32,000 bases of DNA from Bacillota bacterium (GTDB taxonomy: Bacteria > Bacillota > Clostridia > Christensenellales > Christensenellaceae): the NCBI GenBank assembly GCA_023408315.1, contig JAEYKI010000013.1:4721-36720 (forward strand), read 5' to 3'. A program made the translations under genes and the position numbers. The notes beneath the pieces were generated by a model. It was not told the DNA's origin. It did no database searches and worked only from the letters and a program-made list of their open reading frames with translations. Shown piece by piece: positions 7,897 to 32,000 of this stretch (positions within the stretch are counted from its first letter, which is position 1; each line of letters starts with the position of its first letter).

Positions 7897-8159
7897 TCCG
7901 CCGGGTGCCTGATCCGTCAGAACATAAGGTATACGTGCAGGTTGCCGCCGTGTTCCAGACGGACGGACGGCTGCTGCCGGTATCCTTCGTATGGGAGGAC
8001 GGCAGGCGGTATAAAATCGATCAGATACTGGATGTGGTGCGCGCGGCCAGCCTGAAGGCGGGCGGCATAGGCATGCGGTACACCTGCATGGTGCAGGGGC
8101 GGGAAACCAACCTCTTTCTGGAGGAAGACCGTTGGTTCATGGAAAGGCGTGGTGAATAA
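7893..8159 (+). CDS. 88-aa conserved partner protein of unknown function
   Basis: Its start overlaps the polymerase stop (ATGA) and its stop overlaps the SRAP start (TAATG), so it is translationally coupled on both sides. The diverged second copy at 15290-15410 conserves the C-terminus (RYTC.VQG..FLEEDR), which argues for real coding. Confidence 0.6.
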   Translation: MIRRVPDPSEHKVYVQVAAVFQTDGRLLPVSFVWEDGRRYKIDQILDVVRAASLKAGGIGMRYTCMVQGRETNLFLEEDRWFMERRGE

Positions 8160-8776
8160 TGTGCGGCAGATATGCCATTGAATGCGAGGAAGAGAATATA
8201 TTTTTAAAGGAAATACTGGAGGAAATCAACCGCCGGTATGCGGAAAATCCCATTCTTGACCGCATGAAGACGGGTGAAATATTCCCGACGGAAACGGTTC
8301 CCATCCTGGCCCTGGAAAAAGAAAAGGCAACCCCTGTACTGATGAACTGGGGATTTCCGCGGCCAGGGGCCAGTGGCGTGGTAATCAACGCGCGGGCCGA
8401 AACCGTTATGGAGAAGCACATGTTCCGCTCCTCCGTGCTCTCCCGGCGCTGTGTGGTGCCGTCCACCGGGTTTTATGAATGGCAGCAGGTCCCCGGCCAA
8501 AAGAAAAAGGACAAATATCTCCTGCGCACACCTTCCGGCCCCATGTTGTATATGGCCGGGTTATATAACCTTTTCCCAGGCGGTCAGGGCGGCCGGACGC
8601 CGGGGTTTGTGATTGTCACAATTGCGGCGAACGAATGGGTATCCCCCATTCACAACCGCATGCCACTTATTCTAAACACGGAAGAATCCGAGGCCTGGCT
8701 GAGGGACGTTACGTTTGCATCCAAAGCCCTGCTGGAACCGTGTCATGCTCCATTACTATTAATGCAAGCAAATTAA
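8159..8776 (+). CDS. SOS-response-associated peptidase (SRAP / YedK-HMCES family)
   Basis: The N-terminal MCGRY (catalytic Cys2) together with ..NARAET.., ..FYEW.. and ..RMPLIL.. are SRAP hallmarks. Confidence 0.88.
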   Translation: MCGRYAIECEEENIFLKEILEEINRRYAENPILDRMKTGEIFPTETVPILALEKEKATPVLMNWGFPRPGASGVVINARAETVMEKHMFRSSVLSRRCVVPSTGFYEWQQVPGQKKKDKYLLRTPSGPMLYMAGLYNLFPGGQGGRTPGFVIVTIAANEWVSPIHNRMPLILNTEESEAWLRDVTFASKALLEPCHAPLLLMQAN

Positions 8777-9290: not shown

Positions 9291-9534
9291 ACTTTTTGAA
9301 CATTGAAAATCTGCGGCAAATTTATAGATCATCTTTACATAACATTTATCATGAAAGTTAATTTGTTATCCGCTAAGCGCACACAATTATGTTCAGAGGG
9401 GCTCTCCACGACAATTCTTAGTTCAATGCTTTTCAAAAATGTTTTTACTTTTCAAATGACTGTGTCCTTTCCCCTGATATATTACCAAATTCGTTCTGGA
9501 GTCTGTTCCGCTCATTTAGGAGTGAAAATTAATT

Positions 9535-9572
9535 TATATAAAAAGATGGTTGGCTATTCTGTCTACCATCTT
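9535..9572 (-). terminator. Putative intrinsic terminator downstream of collagen-like gene A
   Basis: AAGATGGT (9543-9550) pairs with ACCATCTT (9565-9572). On the minus strand it is followed by TTTTTATATAAATT. Confidence 0.45.
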
Positions 9573-9621
9573 TAAATATTAAAAACTTCTATCTATTAAA
9601 CAATTATAGGTTAACTCATTA

Positions 9622-10740
<1,119 letters not shown>

Positions 10741-10752
10741 TATCCATCCCCC

Positions 10753-11862
10753 CTAGCTCAAACGTATGATCGTTAAAGATGCGCCTGCGGAACTGCCAAG
10801 CAAAACGGCAGCACCCGCCAATCCGAATAACTGGAGAGATACCGTATCTCCCGCCGACATATCCAGCAGAATTTCGTTTGAAAATCCAGATAAGCCAATC
10901 AGGGGTATAATTGACGATTGTGTGTTTGCGCTTCCGTTAATTAAAAGCCTTGTTCCCATAATCAGGGAAGCGGTGGTGTTCACATGATAAGATAAACGGT
11001 ACCGTCCGGCAGAACCAATTGTAAACGTATCATTTGCTCCATTTACAGTAATGCCCGAAAGCAACTGTGAGTTGGGCAGAGGAACCAGAACACCGACTAT
11101 CGTCACGGTAATCGATGCCCCTGTCAAGTTTGCGGCAAAAGCGGTTGTTGCGGTAACATTTGTGCCTGTCTGACCCGTTGCGCCCGTTGCACCTGTCGTG
11201 CCCGTTGCGCCTGTAGCACCAGTTGCGCCAGTTGCGCCTGTCGGACCCGTTGCGCCTGTCGGGCCCGCCGAGCCTGTCGCACCAACTGAACCAGTTGCAC
11301 CTGTCGCGCCTGCCGCGCCTATTGCACCCGCTGCACCTGTTGCACCCGTTGCACCTCCCGTTCCGGTTGCACCCGTCGGACCCGTTACGCCTGTCGGACC
11401 CGTTGCGCCTGTCGGGCCTGCCGGGCCTGTTGAGCCTGTTGCGCCTGCCGCACCTATTGCGCCTGTTGCGCCTGTCGCACCTGTTGCACCCGTTGCGCCT
11501 GTTGCGCCAGTTGCACCTCCCGCAGGGCCTGTGGGGCCTGTTGCACCCGTTACGCCCGTTGCACCTTGCAGCTCGGAAGACGAAAGAGCACTTTGCATTT
11601 TTGTTTTAAAAAACAGAAGATTCTGGGCTACACCGTCCAATACAGATCTGACACTGTCATTGGTATCAAGAACATCTTGTACCGTTGCGGGCGGTCCGCT
11701 CAACCCCGGAATGGTGCCTAATACATACTGAATTTTTTCGCCTTCCGCATTGAGTATATGGCTTAATCCAAGCTCCTCATAAGCGATAGATGCAATGATT
11801 TGGCTAATTGCGTCGTCACGGGTTAGAGGAGGGCTTATGGTTGGAAAACTGGGTTGTGACAT
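10753..11862 (-). CDS. Collagen-like (G-X-T repeat) protein B, paralogue of A
   Basis: It has the same three-part architecture as A ([27 protein letters not shown]; G-X-T stalk; ..[15 protein letters not shown]...[10 protein letters not shown]). It lies 12 nt upstream of A, so the two are probably cotranscribed. Confidence 0.8.
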
Positions 11863-11917
11863 TTTATTACCTCCTAAATGGTTTAAAATTTATGTAACCA
11901 TTCTTTCGGCCAAATGG

Positions 11918-13021
11918 TCAGCCTGCTGAATTTTCCAATACCTTCCGTCTTTCATCAGCCCGCTCAAATTTTGGGTGCAACGCCAGCACTTGACGGTAAG
12001 CTTCCAATGCCGCTGTATTTTTTTGCTGTTTTTCATAACATTGTCCCAATTGAAAGAGGGCCTTAAAGCTTCCTACCCCTGTTCGGATCAAATAGCGCGG
12101 GTCTGATTCTCCCAAAACGAGAGCATAAATGAAGGCACGCGTCGCTTCATCATACCGGCCTAAGCCGTACAATATTTTGCCTTTATAATAATGCAGATCC
12201 ACATAATCCGGATAAAGGCTTAGGGCCTTTTCTATTGCGGGATACGCTTCTTCAAATTTTTTTTGTTCCACTAATATATCATATTTCAGTTTGTAAGCAA
12301 GCGAAGGCGGGACGACACCCTTCTGAACAAATTCCAGGATTACCTCGTTTACTGTTTGCAGCGCTTGCTCCAATTCGCCTAGCCTGTAAAGCTCGGCCGC
12401 CATATGGTATTCCAACCAGGCGTTGTCTGGTTCCCGCTCCCTCTGCCGTACAAGCGCCTCCATATTGCGTTGCGCTTTATATGCCTGTGCACTTTGCATA
12501 TATCCGTAATGCCCGATATAAAAAAAAGGCGTTGGCTCCATTTGAACGGTTTCTATTAAAGAGCTGATATCTAATTGCTCATGAATTGGACCAACGAAGC
12601 GCAGACCAATACCGTTTTTGAACAACCGGAACCCTGTGGAACGATAAGAGTTGTATGCGTCTGCCGGCTTATCCCCGCAATAGTGCAAGAGCCTGGTGCA
12701 TACCAGATCCGGATTTTGGACCTCCAGCATGTTTTGCAGGGCCGCAAAATCCAGCATGCAGAGTTCTTCATCCGCATCCATCCAGAGTATCCAGTCTCCC
12801 GATGCTTTTTTCAAGCCGAAATTGCGCGCTGCGGAAAAATCATCTGACCAGTCAAAATTGTAGACCTTTGCGCCCAGCGACTCACAGATCCCGCGGGTGC
12901 CATCTTGAGATCCTGCATCTATTATTACCATTTCGTACACATGGCTGCGTGCGCTTTCAATACAGCGCCGTATATTTTGCTCCTCATCTTTTACGATCAT
13001 GCACAAACTTATTTTGGGCAT
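11918..13021 (-). CDS. Family-2 glycosyltransferase with C-terminal TPR repeats
   Basis: [25 protein letters not shown]...WILWMDADEEL forms a GT2 fold with a DxD motif. The C-terminal half has TPR-like repeats (YYKGKILYGLGRYDEATRAF, LGQCYEKQQKNTAALEAYRQVLALHP). Confidence 0.8.
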   Translation of the reverse strand: MPKISLCMIVKDEEQNIRRCIESARSHVYEMVIIDAGSQDGTRGICESLGAKVYNFDWSDDFSAARNFGLKKASGDWILWMDADEELCMLDFAALQNMLEVQNPDLVCTRLLHYCGDKPADAYNSYRSTGFRLFKNGIGLRFVGPIHEQLDISSLIETVQMEPTPFFYIGHYGYMQSAQAYKAQRNMEALVRQREREPDNAWLEYHMAAELYRLGELEQALQTVNEVILEFVQKGVVPPSLAYKLKYDILVEQKKFEEAYPAIEKALSLYPDYVDLHYYKGKILYGLGRYDEATRAFIYALVLGESDPRYLIRTGVGSFKALFQLGQCYEKQQKNTAALEAYRQVLALHPKFERADERRKVLENSAG

Positions 13022-13178
13022 CCCATCGTTCTCCTATATATTGATAATCACAATATAATATTCCGATCTGCAAAATGCGTCACTAAAATATTTGCACAAT
13101 CAACATATAGTAACAAACCAGTACTTTTCTTCATATTCTATACGAACAGTAAACTTATAAAATTTCCGGGGTAGCCAT

Positions 13179-14324
13179 ATGACCATCAGTCTATGCATGA
13201 TTGTTAAAAACGAAGAAAACACACTGACAAGATGTTTGTCTTCAGTTCAAAATATCGCGGACGAAATCATCATTGTGGATACAGGCTCAACAGACGGCAC
13301 AAAACAAGCTGCTGCAATGTATACAGATAAAATATACGATTTCAAATGGATCGATGATTTTTCTGAAGCCCGCAACTTTTCATATTCCAAGGCAACAAAG
13401 GAATACGTTCTTTGGCTTGATGCAGACGATTTGATTCTGCCTGAGGATAATCTGAAGCTTCAGGAATTAAAAAAGACGCTTGCCGCTGATGTGGATGTTG
13501 TAATGATGAAATATAATATCCGTTTTGACCAGAATGGAACACCGGTTTTTTCTTATTTCCGGGAACGGCTGTCTAAAAGAAATCAGAATTATGTCTGGCG
13601 GGAACCGGTGCATGAATATCTGGAGATCAGCGGCAATGTCGTAAATGCCGACATTAGTGTTACGCACGCAAAACCATACGTTTCGCCTGTTAAACATACA
13701 ACAAGAAATCTCCAAATATATGAAAATTTAATAGCCGCAGGAAATCAGCTTTCCGCCAGAGGTATATACTATTACGCCAGGGAACTGATGGATAACGAAA
13801 GATACGCGGATGCAGCCGTGCAATTTAATTTGTTTTTGGAATCGAACCTCGGATGGTTGGAGGATAATATCTCGGCATGCGGGGAGCTTGCCAAATGTTA
13901 TCTGATACAGGGAGATGAAGAGAAGGCGCTTTGCGTCATGATGAAAAGTTTTGCATACGATACTCCGCGCGCTGAATTGTGCTGCCAGATCGGTTATTTT
14001 TTTCAAAATAAAAAGAATTACAGGCTAGCGGCATATTGGTTTAAAACAGCCCTTATGCTTGAAAAACCGTCAAATTCATGGGGCTTTTTTCAGAACGACT
14101 GCTGGGGGTATGTCCCGGCCATTGAATGTACGGTTTGCTATGACAATATGGGAGACTATCAAAAAGCTGAAGCATTTAATGAGCTGGCAGCACAGTTTAA
14201 GCCCGGCTCTCCATCTGTTGAGCATAACAGAAAATATTTTGCCGGGCTTACTACGCCGCAAAAAACAAAAAGCGAGGAGGTTGTAAGCGTTGTCACTGCC
14301 GGAATTTCCAACCATCAGTCCTGA
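13179..14324 (+). CDS. Family-2 glycosyltransferase with C-terminal TPR-like region (paralogue, divergent orientation)
   Basis: [25 protein letters not shown]...[11 protein letters not shown] gives the GT2/DxD signature, followed by a helical repeat C-terminus. Confidence 0.8.
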
Positions 14325-15225
14325 GATTACCCGCGAAGGTGCTCTAAATATGATTCTGGCTTCTATTGCCATGGAAGAACTGGCGCTTAGCCATATACTC
14401 AATGCGGAAGGAGAAAAGCTACAATACATACTGGGTACTCTGCCATGCAGTTGTGATTCTATTGACCCTTCTTTCTGCCAATTAATGGAGGCAAATAAGA
14501 GTATTGGTTGCCTGCTGGACAGCGTGATGCAAAACCAGGCATTTTTGAAATCCAAAATGGAAAAAGTGCTTGAGTCGATCGAACATCCCAACACCGGCCC
14601 AACTGGCCCAACCGGTCCAACCGGTTCCACTGGGCCTACGGGTGCCCCAGGTGGAAAAACCGGGGCTACGGGTACTACCGGCGCAACCGGGGCTACAGGG
14701 CCAAAAGGTGCCACCGGCGCAACCGGGGTTACGGGGTCAAAAGGTGCCACCGGCGCCACTGGGGCAACAGGGCCTGCCGGGCCTTGCAAAACAAACTGTA
14801 CGGCTGCTTTTTCCGGTCCAGTTAATTATTGCTTAAAGGCCCATGAATTTTTTGAATGGAAATGTTGCGCAAAAACAGGCGAATGTATTTCCTGGCATCC
14901 GACCGAATGTTCAAAAATTATTTTAGCCCCCGAAAAAAACTATCTGATTTCTTTTACCGCAAATATTTGCGGCTCAAAAAGCATCAACAGCACCCCAAAT
15001 GCGCTTTCCATTGCCGTGCTTACTTTATGCGGTCAAAAAGAACAGTCCCATTTTTCATATCATCTGCCATCCTATCTGTCCAGTTATTCTACGGCTACCG
15101 CTTCTTTCAGTGGGGTTTGGATATCAACGTGTGACTGCTGTGAGCCGACGATTCTCACATTGGCATTGTTATCGCCCAAAATGATAACTATCCATCGATC
15201 CTATCTGAGCATTACATCTTTTTAA
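14290..15225 (+). CDS. Collagen-like protein C with a Cys-rich C-terminal head
   Basis: The TTG start lies 9 nt after GAGGAGG and overlaps the glycosyltransferase 3' end by 35 nt. It has the same N-terminal module ([27 protein letters not shown]) and a shorter G-X-T stalk. The head contains many Cys residues ([21 protein letters not shown]). Confidence 0.75.
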
Positions 15226-15289
15226 ACATCATATTTTAACGACTCCGGAAAGAGCCGCACCCCATAGTCTTATTAAATATTATTCTGAA

Positions 15290-15410
15290 ATTCTCTTCCT
15301 CGTACTCACTGTCATATCTGCCGCACATTTTTCACCACACCTTTCCATAAAAAGCGGTCTTCCTCCAAGAAAAGAAAGGTTTCCCCCTGCACCGTGCAGG
15401 TGTAGCGCGT
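15290..15410 (-). pseudogene. Fragment spanning the 3' end of a second 88-aa gene and the first ~13 codons of a second SRAP gene
   Basis: The minus strand reads ..RYTCTVQGETFLFLEEDRFLWKGVVK then ATGTGCGGCAGATAT (MCGRYDSEYEEEN..). This is colinear with 8085-8195. The TAA stop of the small gene is mutated, and homology is lost on both sides. Confidence 0.8.
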
Positions 15411-15443
15411 CGGTAGCGCTTTACAAGGTGCGGATTTGTTTTT

Positions 15444-16262
15444 TTAATGACTGAGCTTAGTTGCGCTGAAGGATATGCTTTTTGCTAACGGAAAGGTCAA
15501 GGTAACATCAGTAGGGCTAAAAAGTTTTAATTCCAAAAATGAATTTGCCGCCAATGAAATTATTAGATAATCTCCCATATTTGTTTGCACATCCGTTGAA
15601 AGTAGAAGTGAACGGTATACGTGTGGAATTGAACTGCCATTAAGGTCTACTCCCACTTGAACTGAGAGTGCTGAAGCGACCGGCAATATTGATATACTAT
15701 AGTCAATCCGGTAATCTCCAGCTTCCACGATGGTAATACCGCTTGTTGTTAAGGTAATATTAGCTGAGGCAGGCATCAAAAAGTTAAGAGGAAGAGAAGC
15801 TTTTGTCCCGCCTATAAAACTGACATTAAGCGGATTAACGTTGTCTTCGATGATTCCTCCATATGCTGCCGGAAACTCTGGCCCGGTAGCGCCGGTAGCT
15901 CCTGTACTACCCGTAGCGCCGGTAGATCCTGTACTACCCGTAGCGCCGGTAGATCCTGTAATTCCCTGCTGCCCTGAGGAAGCCAGCACACTCTGCATCT
16001 TATTCTTAGTAAGCAGTTGACTCTGGCCAATCGACTCTAACATTAACCTTACACTGTTATTGGCGGCAAGTACATCCTCCACAGTTGCTGGCGGACCACT
16101 GATACCGGGTAGGGTTCCTAAAATATACTGGAGCTTCTCGCCCTCCGCGTTAATGATGTGACTTAAAGCTAATTCCTCCATGGCAATAGAGGCTAAGATC
16201 TGATTTATGGCATCCTCCCTTGTGATCGGTGGATTGATTGCCGGAAAATTAGGCATAGACAT
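15444..16262 (-). CDS. Collagen-like protein D (short stalk, BclA-type head)
   Basis: [27 protein letters not shown] is the shared module. It is followed by a short GITGSTGATG.. stalk and a head with GDYRIDYSISI...SFLELKLF... Confidence 0.75.
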   Translation of the reverse strand: MSMPNFPAINPPITREDAINQILASIAMEELALSHIINAEGEKLQYILGTLPGISGPPATVEDVLAANNSVRLMLESIGQSQLLTKNKMQSVLASSGQQGITGSTGATGSTGSTGATGSTGATGATGPEFPAAYGGIIEDNVNPLNVSFIGGTKASLPLNFLMPASANITLTTSGITIVEAGDYRIDYSISILPVASALSVQVGVDLNGSSIPHVYRSLLLSTDVQTNMGDYLIISLAANSFLELKLFSPTDVTLTFPLAKSISFSATKLSH

Positions 16263-16739
16263 AATAATTATATTTCCTCTCTAATAATAAATAGATTAGG
16301 CGTTTGCGAAACGCCGCAGCCTCCATAAAATAAGGAACCCGGTAGTAAGCGAAAGCTCCTTCCCAAAAATGGTGCAATTGGTCAAGGTCTTAACGCTCCT
16401 CTCCTATGACCCTGCTTACTTTTCGCAATCATACATAGTGATGGTGCCTAACTCCAATCCCAGTTTATACTGTGGTCTTATAGTATATTATGGGCTATAT
16501 CGCCATATTGCTACATAGGTATCATTTGTTCCTCATTAATTTTTCAACTATGGTTACCATGTTTTATGACTGTTTGCTGCTCTTTAAAAGCAATGAGCGG
16601 CATTTTATGCCATCGGTTTACAAGAAAAGCATGTGCAGAAGCTTTTGAGAAAGGACACATGAAGCGCACCACAGCAACATTCGCCATTGAGTAGCAATGC
16701 CTGGCCAGCTGAACACCTAGAAGTCAATGCACTTTAAGT

Positions 16740-16850
16740 CTGATATTCCACTCTGACAGAGGAAACCAGTATACCAGCCGTGCATATCGAAAGTATCTGC
16801 AAACATTACATATCCATCAAAGCATGGGACGTACCGGCAACTGCTTTGTC
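16740..16850 (+). pseudogene. IS3-family transposase (DDE/rve core) fragment
   Basis: The translation LIFHSDRGNQYTSRAYRKYLQTLHIHQSMGRTGNCF matches the HSDRG.QYTS...SMSR.GNC.DN signature of IS3-family OrfB. Upstream sequence (about 16590-16739) may be more of the same gene, but it is interrupted by stops. Confidence 0.65.
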
Positions 16851-16950
16851 AGTTTATGCGTATCATGACTTTTAGATGCATTATGCTGTAAGATACAGAG
16901 CCATCTCTTTCCAACATACCCCATCCATATCGCGCACCTTTAATATTCCT

Positions 16951-17343
16951 TTATCTTTCCATCTCATCCTCACGCAAAATTGTGGGATCCTCTGCGCCGC
17001 ACGGTTCTTCGCGCTCCAGTACCCGCTCATCCTCACGCTGGCGGGGATAAAAGATCACCTCCCTTGCAACAATCTCAGTTACGTACCGGCGCACACCCTG
17101 CGCGTCGTCATAATCCCTTGTGCTGATAGGCCCTTCCACTGTCACCTTGACGCCTTTGCCAATGTGCTCCTTGCACAGCAGGCCCAGCTTGCGCCATGCT
17201 ACAATGGGTATAAAACTTGTCTTGTTGTCCATCTTGTAGCGGTCGGGGACCGCCAGGGTAAATGTCGCGTAGTCAATATCATTGACCGTTTTACGCAGTT
17301 CCACATCCCTGGTTAAAAATCCTGTCAAAAATACACTGTTCAC
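16951..17343 (-). CDS. ssb: Single-stranded DNA-binding protein (element-borne)
   Basis: The OB-fold N-terminus is NSVFLTGFLTRDVELRKT...FIPIVAWRKLG...GKGVKVTVEG. The start is GTG with GGAGGG 5 nt upstream. The C-terminus ends ..EDEMER rather than the canonical acidic D-D-D-(I/L)-P-F tip. Confidence 0.85.
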   Translation of the reverse strand: MNSVFLTGFLTRDVELRKTVNDIDYATFTLAVPDRYKMDNKTSFIPIVAWRKLGLLCKEHIGKGVKVTVEGPISTRDYDDAQGVRRYVTEIVAREVIFYPRQREDERVLEREEPCGAEDPTILREDEMER

Positions 17344-17364
17344 TTTATCCCTCCAAAAAAGCAG

Positions 17365-17500
17365 ATGTACCTGCCAGGTACATCTTTTTTAGTTTTCCAT
17401 GTACCCAGGATGTACAATGTACATCCCAGGTACATGATTTTTACTCAGAACGCATTTTTTTATGTACCCAGCAGGTACATTGTACAAACCAGGTACATAG
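17365..17500. repeat. Three ATGTACC/GGTACAT heptad clusters (left array)
   Basis: ATGTACCTGCCAGGTACAT is at 17365-17383. ATGTACCCAGGATGTACAATGTACATCCCAGGTACAT starts at 17399. ATGTACCCAGCAGGTACATTGTACAAACCAGGTACAT starts at 17462. The last one matches the reverse complement of the 53-bp unit at 29974-30227. Confidence 0.85.
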
Positions 17501-21807: not shown

Positions 21808-21941
21808 GCTTCCACAACCGCCCAGGGCGTACCCCCGGCAAACGCGTCCGGGGTGGTCTGCAACAAAACCCGGATGTCGCGAAGCGAGCCGTTCCAAAAG
21901 TTAATGCCGTTTTGCAGCAAATCCACAATCTTCTGTTCCAA
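21808..21941 (-). pseudogene. Possible 5' remnant (~45 codons) of a deleted T4SS membrane-protein gene
   Basis: The TTG start lies 6 nt after GAGGTG. The first 45 codons (MEQKIVDLLQNGINFWNGSLRDIRVLLQTTPDAFAGGTPWAVVEA) look protein-like. The ORF then runs out of frame through the virB4 start as Arg/Gly-rich nonsense. Confidence 0.3.
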
Positions 21942-21982
21942 TCATTTCACCTCGTTTCAAGAGGGGCCAAAAGCCCCTCCCC

Positions 21983-22300
21983 TTATACCTGAACCCCAAT
22001 CGCCTGCAGAACATATTTAACGCCAAACAAGACCGCGCCACCCGCCAGAAACATGATAGACTGTGTGCGCTGGGATGCGTCGTTGCTTTTGAACGATAAC
22101 CCCAGCTGCACAAATCCAAAGATTATGCCGATCACCCCGATACCGCTTACAATGTTCAGGATAAACGATGTAAGGTTATTCATTGCCTGCAGCGGATCCA
22201 TACCCTGCTGCACATCCACCGCCAGGGCAATCCTGCCCGTTCCCATCGTTACCGCGGCAGCACCGGCTGCCCAATACTTCCTTTTGTTCATTTTCCTCAT
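21983..22300 (-). CDS. Small membrane protein, Maff2/VirB2-like (pilin-like T4SS component)
   Basis: It is 105 aa with a signal-like N-terminus and two hydrophobic helices flanking a short polar loop (..IVSGIGVIGIIFGFVQLGLSFKSNDASQRTQSIMFLAGGAVLFG..). It sits between virD4 and virB4. Confidence 0.55.
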   Translation of the reverse strand: MRKMNKRKYWAAGAAAVTMGTGRIALAVDVQQGMDPLQAMNNLTSFILNIVSGIGVIGIIFGFVQLGLSFKSNDASQRTQSIMFLAGGAVLFGVKYVLQAIGVQV

Positions 22301-27450: not shown

Positions 27451-27579
27451 GCGGCTGTGCCGCTCAGGGTTTTAGGGCGCGCGGCCCCTGACAAGTGCAA
27501 AATCCCAGGATTTTGCGATACTTGCACAGGAAATGAACCGGTTCCCGGTTCACGCCTGCGGCGGCGGCCCTGGGGCCGC
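27451..27579. promoter_or_regulatory. Candidate oriT / mobC promoter region with four inverted repeats
   Basis: The repeats are GCGGC-TGT-GCCGC (27451-27463), GCAAAATCC-CA-GGATTTTGC (27497-27516), GAACCGG-TTC-CCGGTTC (27535-27551) and GCGGCC-CTGG-GGCCGC (27564-27579). The region is immediately upstream of mobC-relaxase, the usual oriT position. The nic site was not identified. Confidence 0.45.
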
Positions 27580-27754: not shown

Positions 27755-28627
27755 TTACTGGTCTTCTGAGATACTAATCATTTCTTCACAATATTTTGAA
27801 TAAGGTCTAAGGTTATTATAATTTCTGGAAAAATTCAACCTACTATCTATCTGTTTTAATAATACGTTGGTCGAGTTTTCATTTAACTTTCTACAAACGT
27901 TCCTTGTATCAAGACCTAGAATTCTACAAGCCTCCAAAGTAGGACAAAAGTTCACTGAATGAAAAACGATTCTCTTTTCTGTTTTCTCTATGATCGGTGC
28001 TTCAGCTTGAGTAATCCGAAAACGTTCAAGCAAGAGCCGGTAAGCAGAATAAAGCAAATCCTGAGAAATAAAAGCAAAGCTATCTTTGTTATCTTGGAAC
28101 CATTTCGTTCTTCTGCAAATAGAATCAGCATTAAGCTCATTCAAAATCTGATCATCAGAATTTCGCAAATGTTCAATTTCCTTTCTAACATCTTCGCGAT
28201 ATAAAACCGAGCATTCGGTTCCTAAAATTCCCTCATTGATTTTTATTTCAACACCCGCTCTGCTGAAAACTTCCATACAAGTAAGGTCCAATCGTCTTCT
28301 GCCTTGTGTAAGGGCTTCTTTAATTGAATATCCATATGCAATTTCGGTAATACCTGACCAAACAATCGCAGATGCGCACATCGGGCATGGTTCGTGTGTT
28401 GAAACAAGAATGCATCCAGAGAGATTTTTACCTTGTTTTCTACTTACTTCTTTAATGGCGTTCAGTTCAGCATGTGATGTTGGATCATTCTCTGTATCTT
28501 CTTTATCATGAGCAGACGCCAGAATATTTCCATCCTTTACAATCACTGCTCCAAATCCATTATTACCCTCACAAAGACTTACTTTCGCTTCTTTAATAGC
28601 AATTTTCATATACTGCTCTAGCTCCAA
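27755..28627 (-). CDS. Fusion protein: N-terminal zinc deaminase (guanine deaminase/TadA-like CDA fold) plus C-terminal ATC-hydrolase-like Cys-rich domain
   Basis: The N-terminal half has ..GFGAVIVKDGNILASAHDKEDTENDPTSHAELNAI...STHEPCPMCASAI, the H-A-E and PC..C zinc motifs, and is close to B. subtilis GuaD by memory. The C-terminal ~130 aa has ..IVFHSVNFCPTLEACRILGLDTRNVCRKLNE...YCEE.., which resembles the L-2-amino-thiazoline-4-carboxylate hydrolase family pattern. I chose TTG 28625-28627, about 6 nt after AAGGAGGG. Confidence 0.7.
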   Translation of the reverse strand: MELEQYMKIAIKEAKVSLCEGNNGFGAVIVKDGNILASAHDKEDTENDPTSHAELNAIKEVSRKQGKNLSGCILVSTHEPCPMCASAIVWSGITEIAYGYSIKEALTQGRRRLDLTCMEVFSRAGVEIKINEGILGTECSVLYREDVRKEIEHLRNSDDQILNELNADSICRRTKWFQDNKDSFAFISQDLLYSAYRLLLERFRITQAEAPIIEKTEKRIVFHSVNFCPTLEACRILGLDTRNVCRKLNENSTNVLLKQIDSRLNFSRNYNNLRPYSKYCEEMISISEDQ

Positions 28628-28702
28628 TATCAACCCTCCTTAATAAATATCGTTATAAAATATCATAAAGCAACTAAAAAATCAATGCATTCAAGGTATA
28701 CC

Positions 28703-29581
28703 TCACCGCCTTTCCCGGTTGAGCCGTATCATGTTATTGATCTGCGACGTCCAGTGCGTTTCGCTGGTCGCCCTGGCGTTGTACAGCGCTGTCAAAAGAT
28801 AGTTCCGCACATTCCGCACCGGCTCGCCCAACGCGGTGATCCCGTTGATCACGCTGGAGATATCGTTGTGCCGCAGCTCCAGAAACCGTTGCCGCACGGC
28901 CTGGGCGTCCATCACCGCGCCGTTCACCTTGAATGTCTTTTCCTCCCCGCACAGCACGTCCATCATCAGCATATATATTGATTCTGCCAGCTTGCTGACC
29001 TGCGGCTCGTAAGACATCAGCATGTCGTACTCGATGTTTTCTTTCACCAAAAAGGAATATCTGTCCATCCGATCCATCCATTCCGTACCTACTGTAGGAT
29101 GGATAGATAGATCTATATCCTTTATAGACTTGTTAATATTAGTGTCCGAAATTACCGTGTCCGAAGATTTGAGACACGGTTGGTTTGCCGTGTCCGAAAA
29201 TTTCGGACACGGTGAAAATCCCTCTCTTATCACATTTTTAGGGTTTGCCACAAGTATGTATACGTTACGCTTATACTTTCCGGTACTCCGTTTTTGTCCA
29301 ACTCGAACATAATCATACTTTTTAAGCTCTTCAAGGTATTTATAATACGTGTCTTTATTCACCCCCAAATCTTTCACTATGGTATCTCTGCCGGGAAAAG
29401 CCGTATTACCTGAACCTGCATAGCTGCAAAAGTATGCATAGATCGCTTTCGCTTGAATTGGCAGGCGGCGGTCTTTCATAACTATTTTGGGAATAGTTCC
29501 AAACCCCCTCGCATTTACGCCTTCAATCCGTATTTCGTCCACCAGGCTTTCTTCTACGCCCTTGCTATTGTTCTTGTCCAT
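28703..29581 (-). CDS. Winged-HTH Rep-like / replisome-organizer-like protein
   Basis: The N-terminus GFGTIPKIVMKDRRLPIQAKAIYAYFCSYAG.GNTAFPGRDTIVKDLGVNKDTYYKYLEELKKYDYV is a typical wHTH of plasmid/ICE replication-initiator-like proteins. The central linker is encoded by DNA palindromes. The C-terminal domain is uncharacterized. Confidence 0.6.
   Translation of the reverse strand: MDKNNSKGVEESLVDEIRIEGVNARGFGTIPKIVMKDRRLPIQAKAIYAYFCSYAGSGNTAFPGRDTIVKDLGVNKDTYYKYLEELKKYDYVRVGQKRSTGKYKRNVYILVANPKNVIREGFSPCPKFSDTANQPCLKSSDTVISDTNINKSIKDIDLSIHPTVGTEWMDRMDRYSFLVKENIEYDMLMSYEPQVSKLAESIYMLMMDVLCGEEKTFKVNGAVMDAQAVRQRFLELRHNDISSVINGITALGEPVRNVRNYLLTALYNARATSETHWTSQINNMIRLNRERR
29142..29212. repeat. 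Half-site plus two adjacent 25-bp palindromes (GTGTCCGAA motif) inside the Rep-like CDS
   Basis: GTGTCCGAA is at 29142-29150. CCGTGTCCGAAGATTTGAGACACGG is at 29155-29179 (imperfect). CCGTGTCCGAAAATTTCGGACACGG is at 29188-29212 (perfect). Confidence 0.85.
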
Positions 29582-29594
29582 GCGTGATCCCCCT

Positions 29595-29849
29595 TCAAAT
29601 TGCTGTCATTGGTATTTCAAGTTCCTGGACAATCATGTCGCAAACTTCACTGGAATCAAGGAGTAACAGAAACAGCAGCCGCTGCCCCTCCACCACCTGT
29701 ACGCGCCCATCCAGAAGATAATGCTTGCGGTACTCTTCCTCCGGCAACTGCCGGAACACCGCAAAAGCAATCTCTCCGTTCGGGCGCATAACTGGCAGTG
29801 TCGTATAAGCTGGCTCCCTCTGTTCGTCCCCGATCCGCTCTACCGTCAT
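29595..29849 (-). CDS. 84-aa protein of unknown function, first gene after the repeat array
   Basis: The ATG at 29847-29849 lies 4 nt after AAGGAGGTGA (MTVERIGDEQREPAYTTLPVMRPNGEIAFAVF..). There is a 13-nt gap to the Rep-like gene, so the two probably form an operon. Confidence 0.55.
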   Translation of the reverse strand: MTVERIGDEQREPAYTTLPVMRPNGEIAFAVFRQLPEEEYRKHYLLDGRVQVVEGQRLLFLLLLDSSEVCDMIVQELEIPMTAI

Positions 29850-29881
29850 CTCGTCACCTCCTTGTATGCTGTTTGCAGGAT

Positions 29882-29931
29882 ACAAAAAACGCCCAAGGCT
29901 GTACGGGTTTTGATGCGTTAGCCTGGGCGTT
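29882..29931 (-). terminator. Terminator-like hairpin in the leader of the 84-aa/Rep-like operon (possible attenuator)
   Basis: On the minus strand AACGCCCAGGC, a 21-nt loop and GCCTTGGGCGTT are followed by TTTTTTGT. The SD of the 84-aa gene starts about 20 nt later. Confidence 0.5.
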
Positions 29932-29938
29932 CGGTTTT

Positions 29939-30227
29939 ATGTACCTGCCAGGTACATGGTTTTGCCGTTTTTTATGTACCTGGGATGTACAATGTACCTG
30001 CTGGGTACATGGTTTGGCTGTTTTTATGTACCTGGGATGTACAATGTACCTGCCGGGTACATGGCTTTGCTGTTTTTTATGTACCTGAGATGTACAATGT
30101 ACCTGCCGGGTACATGGTTTTACCATTTTTTATGTACCTGGGATGTACAATGTACCTGCTGGGTACATGGTTTTACTGTTTTTTATGTACCTGAGATGTA
30201 CAATGTACCTGCCGGGTACATGGCTTA
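29939..30227. repeat. One half unit plus five tandem 52-53-bp direct repeats built from ATGTACC/GGTACAT heptads (right array)
   Basis: Units start at 29974, 30026, 30079, 30132 and 30185, with a half unit at 29939. The consensus is ATGTACCTG(G/A)GATGTACAATGTACCTGC(C/T)GGGTACATGG(T/C)TTT.C.GTTTTTT. The last unit abuts the helicase stop codon (30225-30227). Confidence 0.95.
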
Positions 30228-32000
30228 CCGTTCCCAATCATCCCCCCTCTGTTGTTCGCGCGGCTCTGCTTCGGGTATTTCGTCTTCTTCCTGCAGCACA
30301 ACCGGCTTATCCGGCTTGTCCAGGCTCAGTTCGATATTCAGGGCGGCTACCTGCTCCAATTTTCCGGTCAATTCCTGTTCATATGGAAAAGGCTTCGCTT
30401 TTTCAACAACCGCGTCCTCCACCTCCCTGGTATATTGCTGTATCCGCTCCTGCGCCTGCTCGATCCGCTCGTCCAGGCCGTGCAGGGCATTGTCCAGGCG
30501 CTGGATCAACCCTATGCCGCTTTCGCCCATCTCCACAGGATACGCGAGAGCGCCCTGCAATACCGTGTAATGCTTTTTATGAAAAGCGTCAAAACGCATG
30601 CCAACATCAAACCCGCAGTAGGTTCCTGCCTTTATTGTCCGGTCAGGATCGGTTACTTGTTTGGCCAGCTCCCGGAGGCCGTCGCCCGCGGCGGCCTTGT
30701 CCTTATCACCAAAAGTGATCCCCTGGAGCGTCATGGAGAACGGCTGGACTTTATGGGGCGCGTAGGCGGTACGGTCATCCTTGAGCTTGCGCAGCACATC
30801 ATTCTCATTTTTGATCTGCTGGGGCAGGCTGTAGCGGATCGCTTCCTCCAGCCGGTACTGCTGTGTCCTGTGCTGGTTCTTAAGCATCTGCAGCCGGACT
30901 ATCTCCAAATCCAGGTTCATCTTATCCTTTATTTTCGGGTTGCCGCTTGCTATGGCCTTAACCTCCGCATAGGAAAGCGTATCCTGGTCTATATCGTCCA
31001 TCCGGCGTGCCGGGGGCTTGTTGGTCATGATCTGGCTGATAAACCGCTGCTTATTCTCCAAAATCTGGTAATTGTAACTGTCGAATGTCCCTTCTGTTAC
31101 GTAGCGGTACATCTCCACTTCATCGTTTGTATTCCCTTGCCGGAGTATCCGGCCATGCCGCTGTGTTAAATCCCGTGGCCGCCAGGGGCAGTCAAGATCA
31201 TGGACAGCGTACAGCAGCCGCTGCACGTTTGTCCCGGCCCCCATCCTTGCCGTGCTGCCCATCAGGATACGGACTTTGCCGCTGCGCACCTTTCCAAAAA
31301 GGATCTCTTTTTGCATGTCGGTCTTGGCGTCATGTACAAAGGCAATCTCTTCCTCCGGAATGCCCATGGCAATCAGCTTGTTCTTTAAATCGCCATACAC
31401 GTTGTATCCGCCGTTCCCGGGGGTGGACAAATCGCAAAAGATGAGCTGTGTCAGGCGTTCGTCTCTTTTTTCAAACCAAATCCGGAAGGCCCTTTCGGCG
31501 CATGCATTTGTTTTACTGCCGGGGTCGTCCGGCAGCAGCAGATCGATCAGCCGTTGATCCAGCGCCAGCTTCCGCCCATCAATCGTAACGCTCAGCATAT
31601 TGGCTACCCTGGGGTCAACCCTCCCCGCACGTATCCGCTCGGTCAGTTCCACCAGCCCGTCCACCAGCTTCACTTGCATGGCGCTGGGTTTGAGCGCAAC
31701 CGTCTCCACCTTGCCGCCCTTAATGCGCGGCACCGGCAGATTGAGCATCTCAGCCGTTTGCACGTCCGCAAACTCTGCAAACATGGCGGTCAGTTCGGGC
31801 AGGTTGTGGAACGTGGCCAGCCTGGTCTTGGTACGGTATCCCTTGCCCGAAGGCGCAAGCTCCAGCACGGTACGCGTATCGGCGTATACACTCACCCAGG
31901 AATCAAAATGTTCCAGCCCCCGGGCGCATAAATCTCCATACTGCAAATACCGCTGCAAGGTGTACATCTCGGACAGGGTGTTGCTGATGGGCGTACCTGT
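30225..32000 (-). CDS. C-terminal part of a large SF2 (SNF2/DEAD-like) helicase-containing polyvalent protein; the N-terminus lies off the right edge
   Basis: Helicase C-terminal motifs are ..ILMGSTARMGAGTNVQ.. and ..HDLDCPWRPRDLTQRHGRILRQGN... The frame stays open to position 32000. Such proteins on ICEs and plasmids are usually fused to DNA methyltransferase domains, but none is visible here. Confidence 0.75.
   Translation of the reverse strand, partial: TGTPISNTLSEMYTLQRYLQYGDLCARGLEHFDSWVSVYADTRTVLELAPSGKGYRTKTRLATFHNLPELTAMFAEFADVQTAEMLNLPVPRIKGGKVETVALKPSAMQVKLVDGLVELTERIRAGRVDPRVANMLSVTIDGRKLALDQRLIDLLLPDDPGSKTNACAERAFRIWFEKRDERLTQLIFCDLSTPGNGGYNVYGDLKNKLIAMGIPEEEIAFVHDAKTDMQKEILFGKVRSGKVRILMGSTARMGAGTNVQRLLYAVHDLDCPWRPRDLTQRHGRILRQGNTNDEVEMYRYVTEGTFDSYNYQILENKQRFISQIMTNKPPARRMDDIDQDTLSYAEVKAIASGNPKIKDKMNLDLEIVRLQMLKNQHRTQQYRLEEAIRYSLPQQIKNENDVLRKLKDDRTAYAPHKVQPFSMTLQGITFGDKDKAAAGDGLRELAKQVTDPDRTIKAGTYCGFDVGMRFDAFHKKHYTVLQGALAYPVEMGESGIGLIQRLDNALHGLDERIEQAQERIQQYTREVEDAVVEKAKPFPYEQELTGKLEQVAALNIELSLDKPDKPVVLQEEDEIPEAEPREQQRGDDWER

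Follow-up and report, generated by a model that had tools for sequence, protein, structure and literature searches.

A 53-bp tandem array upstream of a Rep-like operon in a Tn1549-family element, most likely a protein-binding control array

The array and its genetic setting

The window, which is the whole 32-kb stretch of DNA analysed here, carries part of a Tn1549-family ICE, with the family defined for comparison according to PMC12084326. Pfam identifies a MOBP7 relaxase (PF03432), VirD4 (PF02534), VirB4 (PF12846), MobC, DUF3801/PcfB and an NlpC/P60 hydrolase; these conjugation genes form one co-oriented module, and homologues of VirB6 and VirB3 are absent from the window copy of the element. 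All real genes around the array are located on the minus strand. As originally predicted, the array lies between a helicase gene and an operon of an 84-aa gene and a Rep-like gene. The window covers the 3' part of the SNF2-type helicase gene (30225..31967, minus strand; at least 580 aa in the window and 2127 aa in the full element), whose stop codon at 30225 is 4 nt ahead of the first dyad of the array. Between the last dyad and the RBS of the 84-aa gene there is a GC-rich, terminator- or attenuator-like hairpin with a T6 run (29884..29932, minus strand). The 101-nt region with this hairpin has a predicted RNA folding energy of -30.2 kcal/mol (z = -3.15), and a hairpin with a T-run is present at the equivalent position in five related loci (L006, L008, L009, L094 and L101). 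An inverted-repeat block without heptads upstream of mobC (27485..27579, minus strand) is separate from the array and presumably represents the real oriT. The block is conserved in L006, L008, L009, L093 and L101, and genes on the array side of oriT are all oriented towards it. An ATCCTG nick-like hexamer after the hairpin in the window and L008 was rejected as oriT because it is not conserved in L006, L009 and L094.

The first gene downstream of the array (29595..29849, minus strand) encodes the 84-aa protein, which is acidic, has no Pfam domain and is part of a very small family that diverges quickly (8 clusters among 5.8 billion proteins), with 26-39% identity to counterparts of 88, 78 and 75 aa. 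Its AF2 model (pLDDT 78) had no significant fold match in the PDB (best E 0.36, TM <0.4), and the gene is missing from L093 and L101, both of which still have dyads. Given its acidity, its absence from these two loci and the lack of a DNA-binding fold match, this protein is unlikely to bind the array.

Tandem Repeats Finder locates the 53-bp tandem repeat at 29939-30223 with 5.4 copies, 91% matches and a score of 479, in agreement with the original prediction, and unit start-to-start distances along the array were 53, 52, 53, 53 and 53 in a repeat-family search. The copy number of about 5.4-5.5 rests on short-read assembly and is assembly-dependent, as the related contigs L005, L007 and L008 break or have N-gaps within it. 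On the plus strand the units have the sequence ATGTACC-TGGG-ATGTACA-ATGTACC-N5-GGTACAT and end in a T-rich stretch, which is the heptad layout first described; the minus (coding) strand reads CC-ATGTACC-N5-GGTACAT-TGTACAT-N4-GGTACAT-A6-linker. The heptads (ATGTACC, ATGTACA, GGTACAT) are non-contiguous, with start-to-start distances of 12, 7, 11 and 23 bp. Their description as three direct heptads and one inverted copy is correct as read, but because TGTACA is self-complementary the unit is equally two abutting dyads TGTAC-N7-GTACA. The conserved core of the array consists of 5-bp half-sites in such N7 dyads of 17 bp. In total the array comprises 11 dyads, i.e., five abutting pairs with starts 18 bp apart and one single dyad, with cores at 30204-30220, 30186-30202, 30151-30167, 30133-30149, 30098-30114, 30080-30096, 30045-30061, 30027-30043, 29993-30009, 29975-29991 and 29940-29956. 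The pairs are separated by 18-bp A-rich linkers, each with two A-tracts 10 bp apart. The hairpin and T-run that had been assigned to each unit exist on the antisense (plus) strand, whereas the coding direction shows an A-run after the dyads.

The 32-kb window contains 28 copies of the heptad ATGTACC as compared to 2.8 expected, and none of 100 shuffles attained 28 copies; single copies outside the dyad clusters number 4 versus 2.8 expected. Substitutions between units are confined to a few positions (G/A, C/T), as noticed before, and in the unit alignment every variable column belongs to one of the two spacers (N5, G/A; N4, C/T) or to the A/T-rich linker. The 28 heptad positions per unit are invariant across the five full units of the array, with one heptad substitution in total among 11 distinct units from three elements. 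This alignment indicates selection on the sites rather than on the whole unit. Invariant arms, free spacers and a unit of about five helical turns correspond to the anatomy of a protein-binding array, as had been proposed.

The array was correctly regarded as non-coding, as its plus-strand ORFs were not called as genes in an independent metagenome annotation of the same element. The 12-codon mini-ORF that recurs in the units (MYPAGTLYIPGT) lacks both a Shine-Dalgarno sequence and conservation in L009, and is thus a by-product of the heptads. A search for sigma-70-type promoters on both strands of both window clusters and the adjoining DNA found none; TTGTACA as -35 or CATAAA as -10 box would entail impossible spacings. 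A sigma-54-like reading of TGGCAGG-N4-TTGTA was rejected because most units have CGGCA or CAGCA, with GT replacing GC. Rfam matches near the array were sub-threshold miRNA-hairpin noise only. No DnaA box was found at up to one mismatch in the vicinity of the array (29401-30500), and no AT-rich unwinding element flanks it, with AT at or below 65% in every 40-bp window around it.

Dyad clusters in the element and its relatives

All 16 N7 dyads of the 32-kb window fall in two clusters, as compared to about 0.1 dyads expected. The second cluster (17366..17497), which was missing from the original prediction, is located directly upstream of ssb (16951..17343, minus strand; 130 aa, Pfam SSB E = 5.8e-26) and contains five dyads with cores at 17481-17497, 17463-17479, 17418-17434, 17400-17416 and 17366-17382. 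Its last dyad has an extended stem of 10 bp (17363-17385) followed by a T-run and ends about 5-9 nt before the ssb RBS. The independent contigs L099 and L100 have this cluster in identical form. Just outside the window, a third cluster (L004, 2100-2224) is situated ahead of the operon of the giant helicase, so that one element has a cluster before each of the helicase, rep and ssb operons, and L006 possesses an additional cluster ahead of a SIR2/STAND cargo gene. The clusters are 125-285 bp long with a GC content of 0.43 versus 0.47-0.55 in their flanks. N7 dyads were absent from the approximately 17 kb of non-conjugation DNA of the window and from the flanking chromosome in L096, L006 and L010. 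As every dyad in the window and in related loci falls within the element, the array is not a dispersed host repeat of the REP type.

Closer relatives were found through a metagenome protein index, as species-representative genomes contained only three relatives of about 45% identity that have the gene without an upstream array. Eight distinct Tn1549-family relatives (Rep-like identity 50-100%) carry 2 to >8 dyads at the equivalent site upstream of the Rep-like gene. The half-site of these dyads is TGTAC or TGTTC. Units are organised in different ways, and their number ranges from 2.5 in L006 and about 5.5 in the window to at least 8 in L008; L102 has two dyads. Complementarity extends over just 5-6 bp in 17 of 30 unique sites, and L094 mixes half-sites within one dyad (e.g., ATGTTCA-N5-GGTACAT), which indicates that the half-site and not a hairpin is the conserved feature. 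L093, L101 and L009, as well as other operons, have independent multi-dyad clusters of different organisation. In L093 and L101, the Rep-like gene is the sole gene between the cluster and oriT. L101 has a perfect TATAAT 9 nt past its last dyad, and the best two sigma-A promoters of L001/L003 (12/12; 11/12 with TG) are located 13 and 46 nt downstream of dyads. Relatives of the L010 type encode the initiator and lack a dyad cluster. Among more distantly related loci, arrays by Rep-like genes adjoin genes for RHH or ParB_N proteins; in L069, a ParB_N gene adjoins rep and the array has at least 10 units.

Omega-like RHH proteins, ParA, ParM, TubZ and ParB were not found in the approximately 30 kb of the element examined. 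The only RHH-type protein detected by Pfam among the genes of the window element and the small ORFs of L004, L006 and L009 was the oriT accessory protein MobC/NikA, and small ORFs near the clusters in these three loci had no DNA-binding domain. A ParA-like gene was found only in L093, 3.5 kb off. BLASTN of positions 28600-30400 against PLSDB plasmids and INPHARED phages gave no match. An exact-pattern scan of IMG/VR with the composite site had 0 matches, and a protein-guided viral scan yielded distant relatives only.

The Rep-like gene and its in-gene palindromes

The Rep-like gene (28703..29581, minus strand) encodes a 292-aa protein with HTH_36 and DUF6017 domains according to Pfam; a literature search for DUF6017 returned no mention. 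The AF2 model of the protein consists of a winged helix (approximately residues 14-111), a disordered linker (116-161) and a helical DUF6017 C-terminal domain. Foldseek matched the primosome protein DnaB (5wtn, probability 1.0) and, weakly, N-terminal domains of RepA initiators (4pt7/4pql/5kbj), and a homologue in the phage-plasmid EF62phi is annotated as 'DnaD-like helicase loader'.

Within the gene (29142..29212) there are 2.5 palindromic boxes, i.e., CCGTGTCCGAAATTTTCGGACACGG at 29188-29212, an imperfect copy at 29155-29179 and a half copy at 29142-29152, which encode PCPxxSDT repeats of the disordered linker. At the codon level, the TGTCC-N9-GGACA arms are conserved across the Rep-like family while the spacers change. 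Of 103 fetched loci, 27 contain TGTCC-N9-GGACA within or immediately behind the Rep-like gene, as compared to 1.1 expected (24 of 103 as non-redundant loci). The general pattern TGTNC-Nx-GNACA exceeded background at two spacings alone, x=7 (73 occurrences, 3.9 expected) and x=9 (52 occurrences, 2.8 expected), and stayed at background for 3-6, 8 and 10-13. The dispersed external dyads of L001/L003, TGTCC-N7-GGACA, have the exact half-site of the in-gene N9 boxes.

Known theta initiators with an origin within rep include those of pSK41 (RepA_N) and pPR9, whose pfam13730-NTD initiator replicates a mini-replicon (PMC5703833). The Rep-like gene has the same architecture, with a winged-helix N-terminal domain, a box-encoded disordered linker of the dispensable type and a DnaD-like C-terminal domain, and a sequence-specific DNA-binding protein is therefore encoded beside the largest dyad cluster. 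In pPR9, the module of N-terminal domain and origin swaps as a unit (PMC5703833), and a comparable swap of the N-terminal domain is seen in L008. However, the family described here is HTH_36+DUF6017 and not RepA_N, the upstream control region of pSK41 encodes an antisense RNA where the present element has a dyad array, and a replicon role for Tn1549-family elements is a candidate role only. By analogy, the in-gene N9 palindromes are probably the 'Rep boxes' of an origin, and the replication origin seems to lie inside the Rep-like gene rather than in the array.

An operator array and its alternatives

The same short symmetric site precedes the rep, helicase and ssb operons, and the array, as the largest of at least three clusters, is thus most likely a protein-binding control array rather than a replication origin. 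We propose, with a probability of about one half, that it functions as a dsDNA operator array in a regulon that spans the element, and is bound by an element-encoded dimeric protein that represses or insulates the downstream operons. The 53-bp array would represent a tandem amplification of a dsDNA protein-binding site with the core TGTAC-N7-GTACA, and each cluster would serve the operon for DNA metabolism or establishment that it directly precedes (SNF2 helicase, 84-aa protein plus initiator, SSB). A dimeric DNA-binding protein sitting on the dyads could repress or insulate these operons, including autoregulation of the rep operon, and the operons would then fire transiently once the element reaches a cell without the repressor. 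What the sequences show is the anatomy, the pattern of conservation, the distribution over several operons, the N7/N9 dichotomy across the family and a neighbouring gene with initiator-like architecture; that a protein binds and represses, and which protein this is, we infer. The clusters at ssb and the helicase operon imply regulon-wide operator behaviour rather than one origin or centromere. Of the earlier suggestion of an operator or centromere array, the operator part is thus retained with three clusters before operons, while a single origin or centromere is not. The lack of a sigma-70-type promoter in or beside the window clusters on either strand counts against operator function. The terminator-like hairpin before the 84-aa gene and the RBS-abutting ssb dyad would also fit a transcript-level, read-through-blocking role like that of pLS20 EGeRS1.

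The leading candidate for the dyad-binding protein is the HTH_36 initiator, for which we assume somewhat less than even odds. It could read the TGTNC half-site in two ways, with the N9 in-gene boxes as origin and the N7 dyads as operators. Several observations count against the initiator as binder. In L008, the N-terminal wHTH is swapped (63% identity) while the array is unchanged; the external half-site drifts from TGTAC to TGTTC, whereas the in-gene arms stay TGTCC; and both the neighbouring RHH or ParB_N genes of distant relatives and the retention of the initiator without a dyad cluster in L010-type relatives point elsewhere. Covariation of the heptad type with the N- or C-terminal domain of the initiator was uninformative due to shared descent and a single recombinant. 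TGTAC-type octad arrays in EF62phi were also rejected as a link to the initiator: other parA-rep plasmids carry unrelated motifs at this site, and the EF62phi arrays are therefore probably par centromeres. Alternatively, the regulator may be the product of a gene elsewhere in the element, beyond the approximately 30 kb examined. It is tempting but rather speculative to propose that one initiator uses two geometries, with N9 boxes as a theta-type origin and N7 dyads, whether single, paired or amplified as in the 53-bp array, as operators, which would combine a plasmid-like replicon with a master repressor of the establishment regulon that is released by zygotic induction.

The closest analogues of such an operator array appear to be the establishment-gene regulatory sequences of p576 and pLS20 and the omega sites of inc18 plasmids. 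On p576, a Bacillus plasmid from clade II of the pLS20 family, dual heptamers at four establishment operons, including that of the repressor itself, are bound by an autoregulated repressor (PMC8708921). Like EGeRS2/Reg of p576, the dyads described here are paired heptamer-type sites upstream of several establishment operons in a Gram-positive conjugative element, one of these operons would be expected to encode the regulator, and the logic of donor repression and transient post-transfer expression fits ssb, helicase/methylase-type genes and rep. In contrast, the p576 sites are direct dual heptamers (TTATCCCnnTTATCCC) that flank a strong sigma-A promoter (PMC8708921), while those in the window are TGTAC-N7-GTACA dyads without a strong promoter, amplified to 11 in the largest cluster. 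Furthermore, the p576 repressor is an RHH protein, whereas the array is followed by genes for the acidic 84-aa protein without RHH fold and the wHTH initiator. EGeRS1 of pLS20 is likewise found before several operons, immediately upstream of the RBS, is rich in inverted repeats and has no sigma-A promoter (PMC8708921), and the terminator-like hairpins reported here match its read-through-blocking behaviour. However, EGeRS1 sequences are 400-750 bp long, GC-rich for their plasmid and have extensive secondary structure, unlike the 125-285 bp clusters here, which have one short dyad motif and a slightly higher AT content than the DNA around them. Omega sites are uninterrupted runs of 7-10 WATCACW heptads with a 7-bp period, each heptad bound by one RHH dimer, and delta (ParA) is the partner (PMC9499535, PMC2441792). 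Short sites of about 7 bp in both orientations that are arrayed at the promoter regions of several maintenance genes, including replication control, are common to the inc18 system of pSM19035 and the present element. The functional analogy that had been drawn to omega/parS is therefore reasonable, but membership is not, as the heptads here are non-contiguous and occur as N7 dyads in abutting pairs with 18-bp linkers, have a different sequence, and lack omega/delta (RHH/ParA) homologues in approximately 30 kb of the element. One operator before many maintenance or establishment operons is also typical of the KorB, ArdK and StbA regulons of IncP and IncW plasmids, and helically phased arrays flanking rep, with origin and operator repeats that partly share sequence, are known from iteron plasmids (P1 incC/incA, F ori2/incC, pPS10). 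All of these latter systems are proteobacterial with unrelated proteins and sites, and iterons are direct repeats of 17-22 bp.

Among the alternatives to the operator array, iterons of the Rep-like initiator, either the origin itself or a copy-control set acting by handcuffing or titration like P1 incA and F incC, fare best but are still improbable. The array is immediately upstream of the rep operon, has a helically phased unit with two A-tracts per linker, varies from 2 to >8 copies among relatives as iteron sets would, and shares the TGTNC half-site with the in-gene boxes; iteron plasmids typically pair origin repeats with inverted partial repeats as operators (F RepE, pPS10 RepA). However, an origin would not be expected to recur before ssb and the helicase operon, iterons are direct repeats whereas these sites are dyads, and L010-type relatives retain the initiator without an array. 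The array also has neither a DnaA box nor AT-rich surroundings. Moreover, the site that tracks the conserved wHTH family-wide is the N9 palindrome in or after the gene, as in the pSK41/pPR9 initiators, and the array is thus probably not the origin, which weakens the iteron/origin reading of the original prediction.

It is even less probable that the array acts by structure, either on ssDNA (priming, Frpo/ssi promoters) or on RNA (terminators, attenuators, EGeRS1-like read-through blockers). The clusters precede ssb and genes of the leading-region type, a position upstream of ssb that is analogous to Frpo/ssi, and the orientation of the array-side genes towards oriT is the geometry of Frpo-driven genes (PMC11541004). 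The 10-bp stem and T-run close to the ssb RBS, the strong hairpin with U6 after the array, the lack of a sigma-A promoter at the window clusters and the resemblance to the promoterless, RBS-abutting EGeRS1 would all be compatible with this possibility. Yet pairing is limited to 5-6 bp around a 7-nt loop at over half of the unique sites, the arms of L094 are mixed, and arms are generally invariant in sequence instead of freely co-varying. Stems are 5-10 bp long and a -35/-10 pair cannot be placed in any of those predicted, while Frpo is an imperfect hairpin of about 300 nt that rebuilds both boxes; the units are also far below the size of EGeRS1. Additionally, no Rfam family was matched, and hairpins of the array in coding direction precede A-runs and not U-runs.

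A combined partition centromere and operator (as inc18 omega/parS, R1 parC or pAD1 RepC iterons), with a small binder and an ATPase segregating the excised element, is slightly less probable again. The arrayed short sites in two orientations at several promoter-proximal places match omega-site organisation (PMC9499535), repeat arrays separate parA from rep in EF62phi and in plasmids that encode homologues of the Rep-like protein, and L069 combines a ParB_N gene beside rep with its long array. However, none of the partition proteins searched for was found in the approximately 30 kb examined, the heptads are not contiguous, the arrays of par plasmids carry unrelated motifs (e.g., TATCATAT), and the ParA-like gene of L093 is distant and the only one. 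Finally, near-identical units, which suggest recent expansion, the wide variation in copy number between close relatives and the two dyads that suffice in L102 could be explained by extra copies being functionless products of slippage or unequal recombination from one or two functional dyads upstream of rep, but this is very unlikely, as about 10 substitutions all miss the 28 of 53 heptad positions (~(25/53)^10, or ~5e-4, under random placement) and independent, differently organised clusters exist at other operons and in other loci.

Tn1549-family elements reportedly prevail among the ICEs of Faecalibacterium, and they are also common among gut Lachnospiraceae and further Oscillospiraceae (PMC12084326). 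A 17-bp dyad at three or more operons provides a concrete handle on the apparent establishment and maintenance regulon of such an element; the dyad motif can be used computationally to delimit the regulons of related elements, and the in-gene N9 boxes provide a candidate origin. If the initiator is not the binder, the array is still a clean operator array of a familiar type in a new element family. If the initiator binds the dyads, ICE replication control would be tied to the expression of leading-region genes. Should the initiator indeed use both geometries, the Tn1549-family ICEs that dominate in gut Firmicutes would carry a plasmid-like replicon whose initiator doubles as a master repressor.

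Anatomy and distribution of the repeats

Tandem Repeats Finder placed the array at 29939-30223 (period 53, 5.4 copies, 91% matches, score 479), in agreement with the original prediction; this copy number depends on the assembly, as contigs break within the array. In the window the motif ATGTACC has 28 occurrences where 2.8 are expected, a count that none of 100 shuffles reached. The plus-strand ORFs through the array had rightly been regarded as artefacts, and an independent annotation of the same element has no gene there. In the coding direction the unit reads CC-ATGTACC-N5-GGTACAT-TGTACAT-N4-GGTACAT-AAAAAA-CAGCAAAA. Its earlier description as three direct heptads plus one inverted copy holds as sequence; because TGTACA is self-complementary, the unit can just as well be read as two dyads that abut each other, each with the 17-bp core TGTAC-N7-GTACA (N7 dyad). 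The paired dyads start 18 bp apart and are followed by an 18-bp A-rich linker, the unit corresponds to five turns of 10.6 bp, and the array holds 11 dyads. Units differ from one another only in the linker and the two spacers, and none of the 28 heptad positions per unit varies; a single heptad change was seen among 11 distinct units from three elements. Between the last array dyad and the ribosome-binding site (RBS) of the following 84-aa gene lies a GC-rich hairpin with T6 behind it (29884-29932); the RNA fold of the 101-nt region containing it has -30.2 kcal/mol (z = -3.15).

A second cluster, missed in the original prediction, comprises five N7 dyads at 17366-17497, immediately upstream of ssb. 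It is identical in two independent contigs and has the layout pair-pair-single, matching the array, and its final dyad, which lies 5 nt upstream of the RBS, forms a terminator-like stem of 10 bp with a T-run behind it. A third cluster, seen in L004 (the same element, further upstream), lies between yodL and the helicase operon, and in the related element L006 an extra cluster precedes a SIR2/STAND cargo gene. All 16 N7 dyads of the window fall in its two clusters inside the element (about 0.1 expected), a distribution that, for the DNA examined, rules out the REP-type host repeat considered beforehand as an alternative. The first dyad in L004 overlaps the yodL stop codon, and it is duplicated along with the yodL 3' end (2050-2120) ~580 bp downstream (2630-2700), which suggests that dyads spread by local duplication.

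Homologues of the Rep-like protein, an initiator candidate, form a graded series, and eight distinct elements (Rep-like identity 50-100%) have the same kind of site at the same place. Upstream of the Rep-like gene there are 2.5 units in L006 (86% identity), at least eight in L008 (78%; the array has an assembly gap), four single dyads in L101 (68%), six dyads with mixed ATGTACA and GGTACAT arms in L093 (63%), five of the form ATGTTCA-N5-TGAACAT in L009 (60%), four in L094 (59%; 2/4 with mixed arms), and two in L102 (50%). Because the sites vary in number and organisation, the conserved object, judged from sequence comparison, is the dyad, with the 53-bp unit as its amplification in one lineage. 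L096 (1-1200) looks like a decayed element copy: a piece of the helicase gene is fused there to 1.5 array units, the hairpin, and a derivative, 112 aa long, of the small gene, immediately beside ordinary metabolic genes and a CRISPR array of 13 repeats (period about 66 bp).

Genetic setting

All credible genes of the region lie on the minus strand. In gene order, the SNF2-type giant helicase (2127 aa in the complete element, with its stop at 30225) is followed by the array, the 84-aa gene (29849-29595), the HTH_36 and DUF6017 Rep-like gene (29581-28703), a deaminase gene, mobC/nikA, a PF03432 relaxase gene, a DUF3801 gene, virD4, a 105-aa gene, virB4, an NlpC/P60 hydrolase gene, and ssb. By this gene set the element is classified as a Tn1549-family ICE, as the family is defined in PMC12084326. 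An oriT-like inverted-repeat block upstream of mobC (27485-27579), which contains …GCAAGTATCGCAAAAT-N6-ATTTTGCACTTGTCAGGGG…, is kept in all relatives and has no heptads. The inverted repeat in front of this block is element-specific, being different in each relative, and may be a relaxosome specificity determinant. The presumed oriT and the array are 1.3-2.3 kb apart, with the array on the side opposite the relaxase. On the array side, AcrVA2-like, ArdC-N, methylase, and helicase genes of the window's and related elements all point toward oriT, the same layout as the leading-region geometry described in PMC11541004.

The low-GC gene for a 292-aa protein with a cytidine/deoxycytidylate-deaminase domain (27755-28633, between the Rep-like gene and oriT) looks like cargo inserted in the leading-side region, since it is missing at the equivalent position in L006, L008, L093, and L101. 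At the site of window 21897-21983, L006, L008, L010, L094, and L102 carry virB6-like (TrbL_2) and virB3-like (PrgI) genes, whereas the window's element and L004 have only a short gap from the 105-aa gene to virB4; two essential T4SS components are probably missing, and this copy may be transfer-defective. An ~8-kb island (about 9300-16900) encodes collagen-like/BclA-type proteins, with 9-bp G-X-Y tandem repeats at 10141-11518 and 14593-15960, and TPR-glycosyltransferases. It is flanked by ssb and by SRAP, 88-aa, and Y-family polymerase genes, and is an insertion, as SRAP directly adjoins ssb in L099 and L100. These two copies of the ssb region are otherwise identical, but in both the NlpC/P60 hydrolase gene is split in its 3' part by a reverse transcriptase/maturase of the group II intron type, which has an HNH tail (L099 1-700, L100 1-300). 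A Cas3-type HD nuclease/helicase gene (3763-6111) lies at the far end of the window, outside the conjugation module.

Putative function of the array

The array is most likely of operator type, acting on duplex DNA as part of an element-wide set before the helicase, rep, and ssb operons. An element-encoded dimer bound to the dyads would repress or insulate these operons, including rep autoregulation, and a new recipient without this protein would experience a burst of their expression. No promoter of the sigma-70 type turned up at the window's two dyad clusters and terminator-like hairpins directly precede the genes behind them, so the clusters may include a read-through-blocking or attenuation component. 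The closest documented systems are the establishment regulons of the pLS20 family: p576 has dual heptamers at four operons, bound by an autoregulated RHH repressor, and pLS20 has promoterless, inverted-repeat-rich regions that adjoin the RBS and block read-through (PMC8708921). The window's clusters share features with both, and by analogy the array's mode of action would come closest to that of a p576- or omega-type operator regulon. A literature search found no description of such repeats in Tn1549-family elements.

The original prediction had offered iterons as one reading. An iteron or copy-control set next to a Rep-like gene is unlikely here: the repeat is of the wrong type, and neither a DnaA box nor an unwinding element was found. 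An element acting through ssDNA or RNA structure, for which the stems and T-runs might speak, is quite improbable; complementarity extends over only 5-6 bp in 17/30 unique sites, and L094 combines TGTTC and TGTAC half-sites within single dyads. The conserved feature, as these sequences indicate, is a half-site read on duplex DNA and not a hairpin. Frpo was ruled out by size and by the lack of promoter boxes. A centromere, suggested earlier through likeness to omega/parS sites, we regard as very improbable, and membership of that family did not hold up, as site sequence and contiguity differ and no matching proteins were found in the roughly 30 kb of the element examined. Neutral amplification, given the invariant heptads, is scarcely credible.

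Element-specific palindromes recur more widely (22/92 loci versus 0/92 shuffled loci). Among distant elements with HTH_36 Rep-like genes, L033 (about 8050-8250) and L042 (about 1600-1850) carry an array of TTATGGGGAAC-N3-GTTCCCCATTA with a 43-bp period, adjoining two RHH genes and a MobL relaxase gene; L067 and L069 (12640-13400) carry ACCGGAAC-N2-GTTCCGGT (44-bp period, at least ten units), with a ParB_N gene in the element. The Enterococcus phage-plasmid EF62phi (L103, 1907-2067) has two 54-bp blocks of 8-bp direct repeats, GTGTACA(A/G) and GTAGACA(T/G), each terminating in an inverted GGTGTAC-C-TGTACAC, between parA and a homologous 'DnaD-like helicase loader' gene. These blocks have the same TGTAC core as the window's heptad and may be a par centromere.

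The Rep-like protein and a candidate origin within its gene

In the AF2 model of the Rep-like protein, residues 14-111 form a winged helix and residues 116-161 a disordered linker, and the C-terminal domain (CTD) is helical. Foldseek matched the protein to the DnaD-like primosome protein DnaB (5wtn, probability 1.0) and, weakly, its N-terminal domain (NTD) to the NTD of the staphylococcal RepA initiator and the RepA NTD-DNA complex; our literature search found nothing on DUF6017. At 29142-29212 (minus strand), 2.5 copies of a 25-bp palindrome, CCGTGTCC-N9-GGACACGG, code for the PCPxxSDT repeats of the linker. The palindrome's arms are kept family-wide, while the spacer varies in nucleotides and amino acids. 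Exact TGTCC-N9-GGACA boxes occur in 27/103 fetched loci, redundant ones included (1.1 expected), and TGTNC-N9-GNACA in 24/103 after removal of redundant copies of the same element. The latter nearly always lie in the Rep-like gene or just behind it, with extra matches at L001 3230 and L103 3956 as the clearest exceptions; relatives at 30% identity have four copies with a 44-bp period right behind the stop codon.

Across 1.09 Mb of loci, TGTNC-Nx-GNACA was enriched only at x=7 (73 versus 3.9 expected) and x=9 (52 versus 2.8), with the other spacings from 3 to 13 at background, a test that is only partly independent as the motif was defined after the data were seen. N7 sites are external, and N9 sites lie in or beside rep. 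That the winged helix of the initiator may read both classes is best argued, if only indirectly, from the related loci L001 and L003, where external TGTCC-N7-GGACA dyads have exactly the same half-site as the internal N9 boxes; the best two sigma-A promoters of this region are 13 and 46 nt downstream of such dyads. Against this stand the swapped NTD of L008 (63% identity) with an unchanged array, the drift of the external half-site while the internal one is constant, and the RHH or ParB_N genes that adjoin arrays near Rep-like genes in more distant elements. That the initiator is a master repressor with dual geometry is a tentative and rather doubtful proposal.

In pSK41, Rep boxes are central in rep, the linker encoded by them is dispensable, and both terminal domains are DnaD-like; pPR9 has a pfam13730 domain as its NTD-plus-origin module, which still supports autonomous replication (PMC5703833). 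The window's Rep-like gene shares with pSK41 the boxes inside rep, the linker, and the DnaD-like domains. Compared with the window's initiator (28703-29581), that of L008 (10001-10876) has a 98% identical CTD and a 63% identical winged helix, with upstream array and 84-aa gene identical despite the NTD swap, a modular replacement that recalls pPR9 versus pSK41. Because their arrangement is that of pSK41 and pPR9, the N9 boxes, and not the 53-bp array, are the probable candidate for the replication origin. If true, an origin within the gene would mean a plasmid-type theta replicon in a Tn1549-family ICE.
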